DNA of 62,721 bases, the filler included. It is 4 parts of 4 records of this genome, joined end to end, with 100 filler letters (N's around TTAATTAATTAA, not from the genome) between each part and the next. Parts side by side here need not be neighbours in the genome. Positions count along the whole stretch, not along the records: positions 28,654 to 51,693 come from SRR20825019_2311; 3 more parts are not named here. The stretch is one strand, 5' to 3'. The position numbers were made by a program, and so were the translations under genes. Below, piece after piece: positions 24,826 through 46,858 of this stretch. The notes below the pieces were generated by a model that saw nothing but the letters and a program-made list of their open reading frames with translations, had not been told where the DNA came from and searched no databases. Every line of letters begins with the position of its first letter. Positions within the stretch are counted from its first letter, which is position 1.

Positions 24826-27701
24826 ATGGCGCGTGCGTCTGTGCCGAGCGCCGTGCTCAGGTTATTTCCGGGCGAGTTTGCATCGCAGTCAGCGACCGTG
24901 ACAACAAACGAGGAGGGGGGATGTAAGTTTCTTAGTGAGCACAGTCGAGAAAAAAAGTTCCTTGTGGAGTGCCAGAGTGTCGTGCTCCCTCATAACAAAA
25001 CAACGGTATGGTTGCAGCGAGGTCGCGGACTTCGATTTAGTCCGGCAGTACTCACCTCTTCCCTCCACAGAGCGACCTCTTTGGGTTGAAGCAGGTGCGC
25101 CTCCACTGCAACAACGCGGTCAGCGGAATTGGCTCCTGCATTGTTGCTGTTGGCCCCATGACGGGACACAAGGTTAATACAATGCTTGGGTCAGGGTCTT
25201 TAGAGGAGGAGTTTGGTAAGCAATCTCGTGTTCGCTGGCTTGGGGGCTTGTGATCCTAAAGGACGGGTGTTGCAGGAAGGGGAAAAATCTGCCAAGACAA
25301 TGGTATTCTAAAGAGGTTGGCGGCTGAACTCCTTGCATGCGTGACTAAGCAGTCGGGCGGCATGCTCTCGGTAGCTGTGCTGGCACCATGTAAGTTGCAG
25401 ATGCTCTACAACAAGATAGATTCTGATTGATCATTCTCTCTATTTGTTGCTGCAGGTGCAGAAGGAGGGTTTGACGACGGTGGTGATGATCCAACGAAAG
25501 CCGCGTACATGAGCACTGTGCGCAGAGTGAGCGTGCCGTCCCAAGCACATCACCGACCGGTTCGTACTATGGACGAGTTTAATCGAGTGATCTACAAGGC
25601 AATGGACAAGCTCCGAATAACTCGGGTATCGGGTCAGCTGCTCGTGCGATTCGTGATTTCAGCAGGCACAGACGGCGGAACCAACAAGACGCCACTTAGC
25701 TTTTTGATGGTGGATGATGTGGGACTCTGCACTTCTAGTCACCATATGGACACATCCTCCGTCTCGACAGTGTCGAATGGGCCACGCGGGGGAGATAGTC
25801 GCACGCCGATCCAGGACATTTTCCTGCATTCATTTGACCTCAAGGCGGCCCACTCAGTGGCACACGTCTTGCATTCGACTCTGCACCATCGCCACAATGT
25901 TCTTGTAATGGGCTGCGTCCCTTGCTCCGGAGATATGACCACCATCAAGCAGACCCTGCGTGTCATGGACAATGTCATTCGCCTAACAAAATTCGGGGCA
26001 GAAAACAAGCACATCTCCTTTGTTGCTTACCAGCAGTCCAAGGTGGCCAGCGAGAATCTCGCTACCAAACCATCATTGTCGGCGGGACTGTCAGCGGGTG
26101 GCACGCGGCTGTCCCCCGCCGCTTCAGGCGACCGCTCGAGGTCCCCTATCACAAGTTCATCTCGACGGACGTCTCCGAAATCCCCCGTTCCAATGCAAGC
26201 ATGGGCGAGCAACAACCCGGGAAACTCAGCAGCAGTAAGGGTGGATCCCTCGTCATCCCCGCCCCGAGGATTGAAGAGGGAGGATCTGGTGGGAGAAGGG
26301 GGTGGTGGCGTAGATCCCCGGGACTCGGTCGCAAAGCAGGACAACGTAGATGAAGGAGCATTTGCGAGGAGCGCGGCGTTGCTCAGGGCCATTAGAACAC
26401 CAGAGCCTACACAAAAGCCACGAGACTGGGAAGAGATTATGGCTCAGTCGTTGCCTGTCGAGCGACTCCGCCAGAAGAAAATGAAAAATCCCAAGGGCCA
26501 CCTCCCTCACGAACGCGTGAAAAAGGCCAACCTAGACGATATCTACGCGCGCACACGCATGATTCGGCCAGTCAAGTCCATTCGTGATGATCGTGAGATA
26601 GATCCCAGGGTAATCCCGGTGGAAGGGGACGGGTACTTTATGGAAAGTGATGAAGAGGAGGCTCCCCGCTTCCGCACAATCCAGAACTGTCGGTCTGCAC
26701 TTCGAGCAATATTCACCTATTACACTACATATGGCGAGCGACATCGGGCTGGTGTGATGAGCTCCGCTAAGTTCATGAAATTTGCTAAAGAGGTCGGAGT
26801 ATTTGATCTTCCCCATGTGACCAATGTGGACGTAGACATCGCCTTCGTGAAGATATCCAGGGGCGTAGAAGCGACGATTGGCAAGACCATGGCGGGAGAC
26901 GTCAGGCTCGTTTTCGACCAGTTCGTCCAGGCAGTGGCCCAGCTCGCCGCTCTGTGCTATCCTGACGTGATCTTGTATGAGGCAACAGATCTCTTTCTCC
27001 GGCATCACGTTTTGCCCAAGGCGCACGTTAAGCCCCCTTCGTGCCTCGCCTTGTGCGAGCGATGCGGAGGACATCAGAACAAGCTGTCCCGTTCAGTCCA
27101 TGGAGCGTCAACTAACCATAATCTCTGTTGGTGTGTAGCCAAAACACTTAAGTTCGACACATCGCCAGTGGATAGTGCGCTCGCAGAGGTGTCGCCTGAT
27201 CATGAAAACTTTTTGAAGAGTTTATTCGGGCAGTATGCCATGAAAGGTCATCAGAGTGGCCTGGGAATTCCGCAGGTGATGCTACTGCGAATCTGAATAT
27301 AGTATTGTGCTGATTAGTGTGACGTGATGCAGGGACTGTTTCACGTTCTTGTTCTAGATCTCAAGTCGTTCCTCAAGCTTACATCGGATCTCGATATCGT
27401 GCCTAAGTTGGTGGCACAGGGCGATGCAATGACTGCTTATAACCTTTCCAAGTCTGAGAAGAACTCCCGCGAGGTCTGCAGAGCGGGGTTGACATACGGA
27501 TCTTTCAAGAACTCGATCATCAAATTAGCCGTCCTGGGCATTCCTGATGTATGTTGAATTTTATCGTTCTTGATATCGTAAATTGTTTAACATGCGGTGG
27601 TATTGCAGCGCAAGGGAAGCAATAATACGGTGACGGAGAAGACTCACACGTTGCTTACTCATATTATGAGCTACGTGTCCACGGGGGCAGGAGTGTTTTA
27701 G
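24826..27701 (+). CDS. degenerate kinesin-motor-like protein with C-terminal p25alpha/TPPP-like domain(s), multi-exon
   Basis: Kinesin-ordered segments AVLRLFP, VSGIGSCIVAVGPMTGHKVNTMLG, FLMVDDVG, LVMGCVP..KQTLRV; TPPP-like MSSAKFMKFAKEVGVFD..VTNVDVDIAFVKI..LVFDQFVQAVAQLA. Confidence 0.65.
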
Positions 27702-36734: not shown

Positions 36735-38063
36735 CTACGTTTCCTTCAAACTAGCTTGCACACGTCGCTGCGCTGTGACCCATACGTAGATCGGCACACC
36801 TGCCAGCAATAGAAGCAGCGCCCAATACACGCTGTCTCGTCCTGAGCCTGCAATCACCCACACAGCGTAGGCGAAACCTATCGCCGCAACTACCGTATCG
36901 CGCAAATGCCCAACCTTTGAGGCTGATGGGTCGCGCACTGCAAACAACCACGCAGACGCGGCCGACATCGCCACGGGTAAAATTGCCGTTATAGTCGCCA
37001 GCAAAATGAGGAACTCAAACGCGACGATCAGTCCATCAACAAAATTCAGTGCAAGCGAGATAGATGCCAACACACCACCAATAATGAAGGATATAGCTGG
37101 CGTGCCATATCGTGTCAGCTTGCCGAACGGGCTAGGGAATAAACCATCAAGCGCCGCCGCCATGGGCATCTGGCCAACCGCAAAAACATTTGCGTTCACG
37201 CCGCTACCCGTCGCGACCAAGGCAATCAACGCCACAATAGTCGCGCCCATTGGGCCAACAAGAGCTGAAGCGGCATCCGCAAGCGGTGCTGTTGATTGCA
37301 TCAACTGCTCGGCAGGCAATAACCCAAACGCAGCCATGGTCACCGCAAAATAGAGCACTACCACAGCCAGTACGCCAGCCATCGTTGCGCGTGGAATGGT
37401 ACGCGCCGGGTCTTGCACCTCGCCAGCGGGTATGGTGCAAACTTCAAAGCCAATAAATGCCCACATGGCCAAAGCACTGGCTGCCGCTGTGGCGGAGAGC
37501 GGACTTTGGGGCTCAATCATGCCGGCGTAATTCGCGCTTTCAACACTCACCAGCCCAAACAAGGCCAAAAACAACAGCGGCAGGAACTTTGCCAGGCTGG
37601 TTATAAGCTGCAGAGCGCTGGAGCCTCGTACACTGCGGCAGTTGATAATTACCAGCCCCCATATAAGAGCGAGGCCACAAGCAAGAGAGGCGTTTGGCGA
37701 TGATCGAAGCGTGGGGAAAAACTCAGCCAAGTATCCGATGAAAGCGACAGTCACCGCAGCGACAGAAACCCACACGGAGACCCAATACCCCCACGCCATC
37801 AAAAAACCAGTGAAGTCACCAAACCCCGCCCTTGTATATGCATAAGGACCACCACTGACGGTAACGCGCCGGGCCATATAGGCGAGCGAGAACGCAAGCG
37901 CCACAGTGCCACCACCGGTTACCAGCCAGCTCAGGAGTGCATATTTACCAAAAGGCGCCAGAACTGTTGGCAACATGAAGACACCGGAGCCCACCATCAT
38001 GCCGATAGACAGGCCCCACGTGCGCCAAAACCCCATGACGCGCTTTTTCTCTTCCACCAGCAC
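36735..38063 (-). CDS. APC-family amino acid permease (AdiC/PotE/CadB-like)
   Basis: GMMVGSGVF, GGPYAY and WAFIGFE motifs; about 12 hydrophobic segments. Confidence 0.9.
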   Translation of the reverse strand: MLVEEKKRVMGFWRTWGLSIGMMVGSGVFMLPTVLAPFGKYALLSWLVTGGGTVALAFSLAYMARRVTVSGGPYAYTRAGFGDFTGFLMAWGYWVSVWVSVAAVTVAFIGYLAEFFPTLRSSPNASLACGLALIWGLVIINCRSVRGSSALQLITSLAKFLPLLFLALFGLVSVESANYAGMIEPQSPLSATAAASALAMWAFIGFEVCTIPAGEVQDPARTIPRATMAGVLAVVVLYFAVTMAAFGLLPAEQLMQSTAPLADAASALVGPMGATIVALIALVATGSGVNANVFAVGQMPMAAALDGLFPSPFGKLTRYGTPAISFIIGGVLASISLALNFVDGLIVAFEFLILLATITAILPVAMSAASAWLFAVRDPSASKVGHLRDTVVAAIGFAYAVWVIAGSGRDSVYWALLLLLAGVPIYVWVTAQRRVQASLKET

Positions 38064-38124: not shown

Positions 38125-38187
38125 TGTCCCATATTGAGACATCAAAAACTGTATCATTTCAGGACATCTCTGTCCCCGCCTGATACA
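38125..38187. promoter_or_regulatory. three 17-bp TGT-N11-ACA sites, putative enhancer for a sigma54 activator
   Basis: TGTCCCATATTGAGACA 38125-38141, TGTATCATTTCAGGACA 38150-38166 (inverted), TGTCCCCGCCTGATACA 38171-38187; consensus TGTCC-N5-TGAKACA. Confidence 0.65.
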
Positions 38188-38238
38188 GTCAAGTGTTCAT
38201 CATTCCCTATCTATCTGAAATCACTTAATATTTATTTC

Positions 38239-38253
38239 TGGCACACCCGTTGC
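38239..38253 (+). promoter_or_regulatory. sigma54 -24/-12 promoter
   Basis: TGGCAC-ACCCG-TTGC matches TGGCAC-N5-TTGC. Confidence 0.75.
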
Positions 38254-38264
38254 GAATACAAAAA

Positions 38265-38420
38265 CGAACCTGGTGCTCCGGCTGCCACCTGGCACAGGTT
38301 TCCAAGTTTAAGGGTTGCATCTAGCTGCCACTGCCTGCGACCTGACGAAATCGAAGTCCGACTACACCTCAATGCCCCACCTCAATCCGCTGGTGTAGTC
38401 GGCTTCGACCCATTTTCCTT
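38265..38420 (+). ncRNA. putative sigma54-dependent three-hairpin small RNA
   Basis: Hairpins at 38267-38300, 38313-38342 and 38351-38408; GCTGCCAC in loops 1 and 2; pyrimidine tail after hairpin 3. Confidence 0.55.
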
Positions 38421-38469
38421 TCCCCAACACCAGATACCGTTTAGTCATAAGCGCAGATCCGACTAAGGA

Positions 38470-39384
38470 ATGCAGTTTATGAGCCCCGAATTTATTCAGG
38501 ATTTTAAAGCGCCGTACGGCAAAGCTGAAAGCTTAAGCCCGCTAATCACCCGCGTGCTGTGCGAAAACCCAAGCCCGTACACTTACACTGGCACCGGGAC
38601 ATATCTTGTAGGCAACAACTCCAGCCTCGCCGTGATTGACCCAGGCCCGATGATGCCTGAACACGGCGAAGCAATATTGCGGGCGGTGGGCGACCGATCC
38701 ATCAGCCATATTCTTGTAACTCATACCCACATTGACCACTCGCCCCTGTCAGCCTGGCTAAGTGAGCGCACTGGTGCACCAATATATGCGTTCAGCACAC
38801 ACGGCGCAGGCCGTAAGGGCGGGCTGGATGGTGAAGATGTTGAAGCCGGTGCAGATACCCACTTCAAACCAGACTATCTGATCGCGGACGGCCATGTTTT
38901 CACCGGGAACGGATGGACACTGCGCGCAATTCACACGCCGGGCCATACCGCAAACCATCTTTGTTTCATGCTTGAAGAGGAAAAAGCGCTGTTTGTGGGT
39001 GACCACATCATGGGGTGGGCCACGACGGTTATCGCACCACCTGACGGAGACATGCGCGCCTATTTCGCCAGTCTGAAACGGGTGACAAAGGAGGCTCCGT
39101 CAGTTTTATACCCTACCCATGGCCCAAAAATTGAAAACGCAGCCCCTTTTGTGCGCGGTATAATAACGCACCGACGCATGCGTGAAGGGCAAATCCTCAA
39201 ACATCTTGAAGATGGCCCCATGGATATCAATATGATGGTCAGCCGCATGTATAAGGATGTGGATGTAAGGCTTCATCCGGCCGCCGCGCGGTCCGTACTT
39301 GCCCATCTTATTGCGCTCGTGGACGAAGGCCGGGTCAAGGCGTCAAAGCCGCCATCGTTGTCAGCATTGTTTGAACTTGGCTGA
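38470..39384 (+). CDS. MBL-fold metallo-hydrolase (LACTB2-like, C-terminal winged helix)
   Basis: NPSPYTYTGT, THTHIDH, TPGHTANH and GDHIMGW motifs. Confidence 0.9.
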   Translation: MQFMSPEFIQDFKAPYGKAESLSPLITRVLCENPSPYTYTGTGTYLVGNNSSLAVIDPGPMMPEHGEAILRAVGDRSISHILVTHTHIDHSPLSAWLSERTGAPIYAFSTHGAGRKGGLDGEDVEAGADTHFKPDYLIADGHVFTGNGWTLRAIHTPGHTANHLCFMLEEEKALFVGDHIMGWATTVIAPPDGDMRAYFASLKRVTKEAPSVLYPTHGPKIENAAPFVRGIITHRRMREGQILKHLEDGPMDINMMVSRMYKDVDVRLHPAAARSVLAHLIALVDEGRVKASKPPSLSALFELG

Positions 39385-46768: not shown

Positions 46769-46858
46769 CTTTTTTCCGAATCAATATATAAAACTGTCGC
46801 ATTGATTCTTCTGTACCAATCCGGCACAAGTTGATGATCAGAAGAAGGAATATGATCC

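Follow-up and report, generated by a model that had tools for sequence, protein, structure and literature searches.

The window analysed here, a stretch of 62,721 nucleotides in which positions count from the first letter, contains a predicted structured RNA of Kordiimonas in the gap between a divergent amino-acid permease gene and a gene for a hydrolase of the metallo-beta-lactamase (MBL) fold. A sequence-only reading had proposed an unannotated, sigma-54-activated small RNA (sRNA) at this place, and its elements were recovered: three TGT-N11-ACA sites, an AT-rich spacer, a TGGCAC-N5-TTGC promoter and three hairpins, the last with a 17-bp stem and a pyrimidine-rich tail, were confirmed from the letters and by folding (Table 1). 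Folding of a 219-nt stretch gave z = -3.95, a value equalled by none of 200 shuffled sequences. The loop motif said to be common to hairpins 1 and 2 was upheld and could be refined to a CUGCCA hexaloop closed by G-C pairs. By number alone GCTGCCAC was not enriched in the window (three copies, 3.75 expected); it is meaningful because two of the copies, spaced by 43 nt, are placed in loops and kept in relatives. The motif CACCTCAAT, said to occur twice in hairpin 3, does so in the window. Its first copy (38365) is partly within the stem and confined to the window's subclade, outside which this part of the claim fails, and the second copy is the only one belonging to the invariant loop block TGCCCCACCTCAATCCGC.

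Table 1. Features of the RNA locus and its flanks, with positions in the window.
Feature	Position	Strand	Basis
Divergent amino-acid permease	36735-38063	minus	Pfam
Upstream activator site 1, palindromic TGT-N11-ACA, TGTCCCATATTGAGACA	38125-38141	+	Relatives have a matching site at the corresponding position
Upstream activator site 2, TGTATCATTTCAGGACA	38150-38166	+	Pattern match, kept in relatives
Upstream activator site 3, TGTCCCCGCCTGATACA	38171-38187	+	Pattern match, kept in relatives
Site like that of integration host factor (IHF), in AT-rich spacer, weak in window, TATCTATCTGAAA	38207-38222	+	Relaxed match only; alignment
Sigma-54 promoter TGGCACACCCGTTGC, -24 TGGCAC / -12 TTGC	38239-38253	+	Consensus match
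Predicted structured RNA (start, ~38265, predicted from promoter; 38415 is the limit of the model match, not a mapped 3' end)	38265-38415	+	Covariance model R1, 181.2 bits
Hairpin 1, apical GG-CUGCCA-CC, hexaloop 38282-38287	38267-38300	+	Folding, covariation
Hairpin 2, apical CAG-CUGCCA-CUG, hexaloop 38325-38330	38312-38343	+	Folding, covariation
GCTGCCAC copies in hairpin 1 / hairpin 2	38281-38288 / 38324-38331	+	Letters
Hairpin 3, 17 pairs, loop with TGCCCCACCTCAATCCGC (38373-38390)	38351-38408	+	Folding, covariation
Pyrimidine-rich tail CCCATTTTCCTTTCCCC	38409-38427	+	Relatives have a TTGACT/TTGCAT/TTGCTT-like block at this position
Small hairpin UUAGUC...GACUAA, just 5' of MBL ribosome-binding site	38441-38466	+	Read from alignments, without pair counts
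LACTB2-like MBL-fold hydrolase with BLACT_WH domain	38480-39384	+	Pfam; PDB 4ad9_A

The secondary structure was evaluated with a covariance model, R1, for which the window and four relatives supplied the sequences and all three hairpins were prescribed. In the 33-row alignment A5, which was fitted to R1 and so is not independent of the proposed structure, 96.1% of cells pair, compared with 24.7-50.5% when partners were slid by one to three columns. Compensatory changes affected 35 of the 37 model pairs, and the covariation score was 0.637 against 0.233 for shuffled alignments (reached by 0 of 500 shuffles); the sequence-only reading had named covariation as a check, and the stems were indeed found to covary around fixed loop motifs. 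An independent analysis of 15 sequences with MAFFT and RNAalifold recovered hairpins 1 and 3, with compensatory changes in 12 of 27 pairs; hairpin 2 was misaligned by MAFFT in this run, and was predicted on a 5-sequence subset and in single-sequence folds. By hairpin, compensatory changes were seen in all seven outer pairs of hairpin 1 (where the apical pair also changed from G-C to A-U in genus g22), in all eight outer and all three apical pairs of hairpin 2, and in 16 of the 17 pairs of hairpin 3. G-U pairs were frequent across the helices and, because the other strand would have A-C mismatches in their place, the plus strand was identified as the one transcribed.

While the stems of hairpins 1 and 2 changed, CUGCCA did not. 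The hexaloop was closed by GG/CC in hairpin 1 and by CAG/CUG in hairpin 2, and of 32 RNAs folded to minimum free energy, 30 left at least one CUGCC unpaired and 23 left two or more unpaired. The number of copies varied between genera from one to four or more, so that the repeated motif of the sequence-only reading proved to be a reiterated one: genus g27 had a single copy of the hairpin; genus g22 had a third CUGCCA hairpin at the 5' end, the promoter lying correspondingly 75 nt upstream, as well as CUGCC repeats in loop 3; and genus g24 carried GCUGCCAC on each of its three hairpins, the terminator hairpin among them. Across the window's half of the genus the loop of hairpin 3 was an invariant, C-rich sequence of 19 nt, UUGCCCCACCUCAAUCCGC, and another Kordiimonas clade had a different C-rich loop 3, CCCCUUUCCCA...CCACCGA. 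Elsewhere in five genomes, the hairpin module CRGCTGCCACYG did not occur above the control level.

The promoter was conserved together with the RNA. The form TGGCA(C/T)-N5-(T/C)TG(C/A) was kept in all 32 loci, with the 5-nt spacer free to vary, and the distance from promoter to the start of the R1 model was 24-26 nt in 30 loci, the other two being the 75-nt cases of genus g22. Within the window the sigma-54 consensus occurred twice, against 0.25 expected; the other exact TGGCAC-N5-TTGC (25858-25872) is inside a 595-amino-acid open reading frame (ORF, 25509-27296) and probably arose by chance. A relaxed activator-site pattern matched ten times in the window, against 2.98 expected and a count reached by none of 100 shuffles, and five of the ten matches fell in a single 63-bp stretch at the RNA locus. 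A palindromic TGTACCAATCCGGCACA of the TGT-N11-ACA type was also present at 46812-46828, 5' of a uvrC-like ORF and with no sigma-54 promoter nearby. When the 100 nt 5' of each promoter were searched for the 17-bp site, allowing at most two mismatches in nine specified positions, 90 sites were found in 32 upstream regions, compared with 2 in equal-sized coding controls; every locus had at least two sites and 24 of 32 had at least three. The strict IHF consensus YAA-N4-TTGAW was present between sites and promoter in 21 of the 32 related loci, and the window's copy is degenerate. This pattern, in which promoter and upstream sites are retained alongside the RNA as the sequence-only reading would have it, supports a transcription unit of the type governed by sigma-54 and a bacterial enhancer-binding protein (bEBP). 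Combined with the covariation, it makes a real, sigma-54-driven structured RNA very probable.

Distribution among genomes was narrow. The nearest genome, G001, showed no difference from the window in the 371 bases compared. The element was placed, by a pattern scan covering 185,579 species genomes, in Kordiimonas and in metagenome-assembled genomes labelled Kordiimonadaceae or Alphaproteobacteria; two further pattern matches, in a betaproteobacterium and in Marispirochaeta, were rejected when R1 gave no match at those places. Of 32 Kordiimonas genomes, 30 had one R1 copy each and no more. At order level (scans of more than 40 genomes ran with stricter filters) R1 matched 24 of 151 genomes in one family only, that is, Kordiimonas and both genomes of its sister genus g22; none of the 113 genomes from nine further families of the order was matched. 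A promoter-plus-motif pattern applied to 401 alphaproteobacterial genomes gave eight matches outside the family, against three in the control, and R1 confirmed none of them. For the 13 R1-negative genomes of the family, the DNA 5' of the MBL orthologue was read by eye. Divergent versions of the RNA were recognised in this way in G042, in genera g24, g20 (one of two genomes) and g27, and possibly in g18, where activator sites and promoter were accompanied by a CUACCA-type RNA; with filters off, R1 scored 15-23 bits at the first four and at best 8.4 bits (E = 0.42) in g18. No element was found 5' of the MBL gene in G045, g19 (two genomes), g25, g21, g26, g23 or G071. A weak second R1 match was observed in genus g22 (G115 contig 4; locus L075, 2012-2115, minus strand; 20.3 bits, E = 0.00037), which has a CUCCGGCUGCCGCC hairpin and a terminator-like hairpin and may be a degenerate second copy in that genome. 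Loci L011 and L029 also had a weak upstream R1 match of 15.8 bits.

The nearest genome encodes rpoN, hfq and seven bEBPs, five of which have GAFTGA; none of the seven genes is in or near the window. Four of these proteins exceeded their NCBIfam cut-offs (FlbD, NtrC, NtrX and PspF), and the other three were a LuxO-like response regulator, an unassigned response regulator and a PrsR-like protein. The gene neighbours of these three gave no clue to the activator. The activator-site pattern TGTNNCANNNYGNNACA was not enriched elsewhere in this genome (16 matches, 14 in the control), and for this reason no second target reveals the regulator. The LuxO-like protein, whose best NCBIfam match was LuxO at 595 bits, under the cut-off of 800, is disfavoured as activator: orthologues were present in 43 of 45 family genomes, among them genomes that lack the RNA, and G124 and G136, both of which have the sites, the promoter and the RNA, yielded no orthologue. 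Its gene lies about 5 kb from rpoN and is adjoined by an ORF with a PilZ domain (G001:C1:2241865-2248980). This leaves NtrC and the orphan response regulator L034 as candidates.

The reading preferred for this locus, at a probability of roughly 0.4, is a trans-acting sRNA activated by sigma-54 and a bEBP, in which the reiterated C-rich loops are the working sites and pair with messenger RNAs (mRNAs). A bEBP of the response-regulator type would bind the three TGT-N11-ACA sites, and bending of the DNA at the AT-rich or IHF-like spacer would bring it to the sigma-54 RNA polymerase at TGGCAC-N5-TTGC. Transcription would then begin at about 38265 and produce a regulatory RNA of about 150 nt, folded into three hairpins, of which the first two would display CUGCCA and the third a long C-rich loop; in half of the genus hairpin 3 would double as the terminator hairpin. 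The reiterated C-rich loops could then pair with G-rich mRNA sequences, either UGGCAG or ribosome-binding sites of the GAGGUGGGG type. Of all this, the conservation, the structure, the promoter architecture and the single-copy distribution were observed, and transcription, an end after hairpin 3, action in trans and pairing are inferences. Action in trans is somewhat probable when taken by itself, and action by base-pairing rather than protein capture can be proposed overall only in a tentative way.

Two groups of observations weigh against this reading, and the first concerns the 3' end and the gene that follows. In 16 of 32 loci the GC-rich stem of hairpin 3 runs directly into at least four U, and together with the absence of the element from loci that keep the MBL gene, and with an insertion in Kordiimonas marina (both described below), this speaks for an sRNA gene of its own. 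In the other 16, including the window's clade, CUUCGA, CUCCGA or a similar sequence replaces the U-tract; the window has CTTCGACC after the stem and no U-tract. Kordiimonas gwangyangensis DSM 19435 is a representative of the clade that lacks the U-tract, and L056 and L071 are examples of the form that has it. Termination after hairpin 3 is doubtful in the window's clade because of this replacement, and transcription may read through into the MBL gene, which lies 64 nt downstream. An E. coli-type scan identified neither a terminator nor a sigma-70 promoter at the locus, in the window or in two relatives, under a terminator rule that allows loops of 3-8 nt only and so excludes hairpin 3. No RNA run was listed as containing the stretch; four possible runs yielded a single 181-nt contig here (38058-38238, depth 2.8), which lies 5' of the promoter and is uninformative on the RNA. 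Furthermore, the MBL gene followed on the same strand, 51-139 nt 3' of the RNA, and was itself followed by nadA, in 31 of 32 loci; this fixed strand and distance is leader-like.

These facts could also be explained if the RNA were a cis-acting 5' leader of an MBL-nadA-nadC operon, with hairpin 3 as a conditional terminator or stability element and a protein or ligand at the conserved loops deciding the expression of the genes downstream. Such a leader is unlikely here. It would account for the constant arrangement, which persists in other genera (nadA and nadC are found 3' of the MBL gene throughout the family), and the 16 loci without a U-tract, the window's among them, make read-through plausible. 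A small hairpin at the ribosome-binding site of the MBL gene, moreover, recurs in relatives as a comparable fold made from different sequences. The E. coli-type scan detected no sigma-70 promoter between RNA and MBL gene in the window or in two relatives, and this would fit a shared transcript; nevertheless, the interval contains a conserved block, TTGACT/TTGCAT/TTGCTT ... G(C/T)TA, which resembles the sigma-70-type promoters of alphaproteobacteria and, judged by its letters, could be the MBL gene's own promoter (the scan did not register it either). The canonical terminator present in half of the genus is strong, and no alternative antiterminator pairing is evident. The conserved hairpins number from one to four, unlike a ligand-binding aptamer, they hold their conserved bases in apical loops rather than in junctions, and no Rfam riboswitch or leader model, the nadA motif included, matched. 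It would also be odd for housekeeping NAD synthesis to depend on a bEBP. The RNA and the MBL gene are not co-inherited, since all 13 R1-negative family genomes retained the MBL gene and 8 of them lacked the RNA and promoter. In Kordiimonas marina (G020), arsR and a cation-diffusion-facilitator efflux gene were inserted between RNA and MBL gene (1.3 kb; L054, 1718-3024), and the RNA and its promoter were nonetheless intact.

A combination of both roles was considered, in which the RNA would be an MBL leader in the clades without a U-tract and would be processed, or partly terminated, into a trans-acting sRNA derived from the 5' untranslated region (UTR). The sequence that replaces the U-tract in the window's clade, and at 11 loci besides, was paired through compensatory changes in the 5' extension of the stem. 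The A-tract:U-tract base of hairpin 3 was thereby converted to G-C pairs in two clades, a conversion that would keep a protective 3' stem while weakening termination, and the loops stayed invariant in the clades concerned. As an account that is inferential throughout, this combination is highly unlikely.

Homology of the MBL protein to human LACTB2 extends over the full length (PDB 4ad9_A, E = 1.3e-39); the human protein is an endoribonuclease. The start codon of the MBL gene is probably the ATG at 38480 (MSPEFIQ...) rather than that at 38470, because the former is aligned with relatives and the latter is not conserved (ATA in L002). On the other side of the locus, the link to a divergent amidinotransferase operon suggested by the sequence-only reading did not hold, as it was not conserved; in the relatives read, a same-strand solute-binding gene (SBP_bac_11) ends just 5' of the activator sites.

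Comparison with known regulatory RNAs left the family without an assignment. The Rfam check proposed with the sequence-only reading was carried out, and it bore out the impression of an unrecognised RNA: no Rfam 15 family matched the window or eight relatives at gathering score, and at E-values up to 10 the window gave only three far-subthreshold matches, none of which was GlmY, GlmZ or Qrr. No description was found in the literature on Kordiimonas small RNAs and on alphaproteobacterial sigma-54 sRNAs, a search limited to material other than supplementary files, and one paper deals with CrfA/SisA, which is unrelated to the Kordiimonas RNA (PMC12559287).

The closest resemblance in layout was to glmY and glmZ, which have three TGTCN10GACA sites for GlrR, IHF sites and a sigma-54 promoter (PMC3045617). 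As in Kordiimonas, three palindromic TGT...ACA sites located more than 60 bp upstream are there followed by -24/-12 elements and then by the RNA, and the IHF sites correspond to an IHF-like site in Kordiimonas that is weak in the window; the Kordiimonas sites are one base shorter, TGT-N11-ACA, with TGTC-N9-GACA as the best copies. Both systems have an RNA of about 150-200 nt made of three stem-loops. The differences are considerable, however: no GlrR orthologue was identified, the GlrR model scoring 278-345 bits against a cut-off of 763 for the five bEBPs with GlrR among the matches listed; the Rfam GlmY and GlmZ models gave no match, the RNA sequence and loops being unrelated; and Kordiimonas glmS has no 5' UTR.

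Other systems shared single properties. As in the case of Qrr, a response-regulator bEBP may have the Kordiimonas RNA as its only or principal target; the activator-site pattern was not enriched elsewhere in the nearest genome, and a LuxO-like bEBP is present. Unlike Qrr, the Kordiimonas RNA is single-copy and without siblings, it has no Rfam Qrr match, and the LuxO-like protein neither reaches the LuxO cut-off of 800 nor was found in G124 and G136; the LuxO site, TTGCA-N3-TGCAA, is also different from the sites seen here. CsrB, RsmX-Y-Z and CrcZ (the last dependent on sigma-54 and the bEBP CbrB) likewise reiterate a short motif in hairpin loops in numbers that differ by taxon, with GGA or A-rich motifs rather than CUGCCA, and the Kordiimonas RNA has one to four copies only. 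The cuckoo RNAs (CcsR / alpha-r14, alpha-r15) are alphaproteobacterial and have hairpins with identical C-rich loops, of a CCUCCUCCC-like motif, that are believed to base-pair with G-rich mRNA sites resembling Shine-Dalgarno sequences; a genome carries several of them, against one copy of the Kordiimonas RNA, which had no Rfam match to them, and we know of no sigma-54 dependence among them. Finally, the class-I NAD+ riboswitch (nadA motif) resembles the present case in having tandem, similar hairpin domains 5' of a nadA operon. It differs in that its Rfam model gave no match, and in that the Kordiimonas RNA has apical conserved bases, a variable number of domains, an MBL gene between itself and nadA, and a sigma-54 promoter.

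The general type, an sRNA with reiterated loops driven by sigma-54 and a bEBP, is known, and the family, the CUGCCA hexaloop and the alphaproteobacterial host are new. To our knowledge, characterised sRNAs of this type are few and the examples above, GlmY/Z, Qrr and CrcZ, are all gammaproteobacterial; they govern cell-envelope synthesis, quorum sensing and carbon catabolite control, respectively. The present RNA is an alphaproteobacterial counterpart with one copy per genome, a conserved promoter and sites, strong covariation of its stems and an invariant hexaloop. It points to an unrecognised signalling pathway in the marine genus Kordiimonas, in which an orphan response-regulator bEBP would drive an sRNA, and it provides a new family that could be entered in Rfam. 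The family is narrow and has no assigned function, which limits its importance in practice.

The second group of observations weighing against pairing with mRNAs comes from target searches, which were simple complement searches in one genome, G001. Complements of loop 1 were no more frequent than in the control (49 in each). Complements of loop 3 were found 45 times, against 14 in the control, and this threefold excess may reflect nothing but Shine-Dalgarno-like sequence. The best loop-3 match was to a glucokinase-like gene, with 11 contiguous pairs over the Shine-Dalgarno sequence and start codon; it was rejected as a target when the complement proved to be kept in four of the eight relatives' loci read that carry the motif. 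The 5' UTR of flbD contains a perfect 9-nt complement of GCUGCCACC, and this candidate was likewise set aside, the complement being present in 2 of 30 genomes only. The glmS 5' UTR was dismissed because in five of five genomes the glmS start lies no more than a few bases from where the upstream ORF ends; glmS directly follows glmU and has no 5' UTR to regulate. Thus, no conserved complementary target site was found for loop 1, for loop 3 or in the glucokinase-like, flbD and glmS genes.

The lack of enriched complementary sites and of a conserved mRNA target would be expected if the RNA were instead a sponge or decoy, its CUGCCA hexaloops being docking sites for an RNA-binding protein that would be sequestered or handed over when the RNA is made under the control of sigma-54 and a bEBP. 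CsrB and RsmZ act on CsrA in this manner, CrcZ on Hfq/Crc and GlmY on RapZ. The conservation is of the appropriate kind, in that the same hexaloop is displayed on two hairpins, its copies range from one to four or more by genus, and the loop with its closing pairs is invariant while the remaining stem is free to change; the hairpin module is also no commoner than chance elsewhere in five genomes, which would suit a dedicated decoy. In the layout of its promoter the locus matches glmY, a decoy-RNA gene (PMC3045617). A candidate partner is adjacent: the LACTB2-like MBL protein has a winged-helix domain, is a conserved neighbour and is homologous to a human endoribonuclease. However, no partner protein was found and no tested link connects the MBL protein with RNA binding; all 13 R1-negative family genomes have the MBL gene, 8 of them without the RNA; and two to four sites are few for a sponge. 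CUGCCA is, moreover, not the motif of any sponge known to us, these being GGA or A-rich. A sponge is for these reasons somewhat unlikely, and within a trans-acting role prior considerations gave the pairing of C-rich loops with mRNAs a slight lead over protein titration. It is distinctly unlikely, as a more specific version, that the CUGCCA hairpin is the recognition module of a new RNA-binding system of Kordiimonadaceae, in which a bEBP-driven decoy titrates, or is cut by, a protein such as the LACTB2-like MBL. If true, this would provide a natural RNA ligand for a widespread and functionally obscure family of bacterial MBL proteins, and would extend the sponge-partner pairs CsrB-CsrA, CrcZ-Hfq and GlmY-RapZ by a new one.

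Two of the upstream regions read for the target candidates had features of their own. The region upstream of flbD (L120-L149) contains a short hairpin that varies in sequence from one species to another; its arms read GCUGCC/GGCAGC in G001 and G013 and so match the letters of the sRNA motif by chance. Upstream of the glucokinase-like gene, a block of about 45 nt, GCCTGGGGAGGGTATGTGTTTGAGTATC...TAAATATATCCG, lies some 25-70 nt 5' of the start codon (L102-L109). This block was near-invariant in eight Kordiimonas genomes, in which the adjoining ribosome-binding site varies, and it could be an unrecognised regulatory element.

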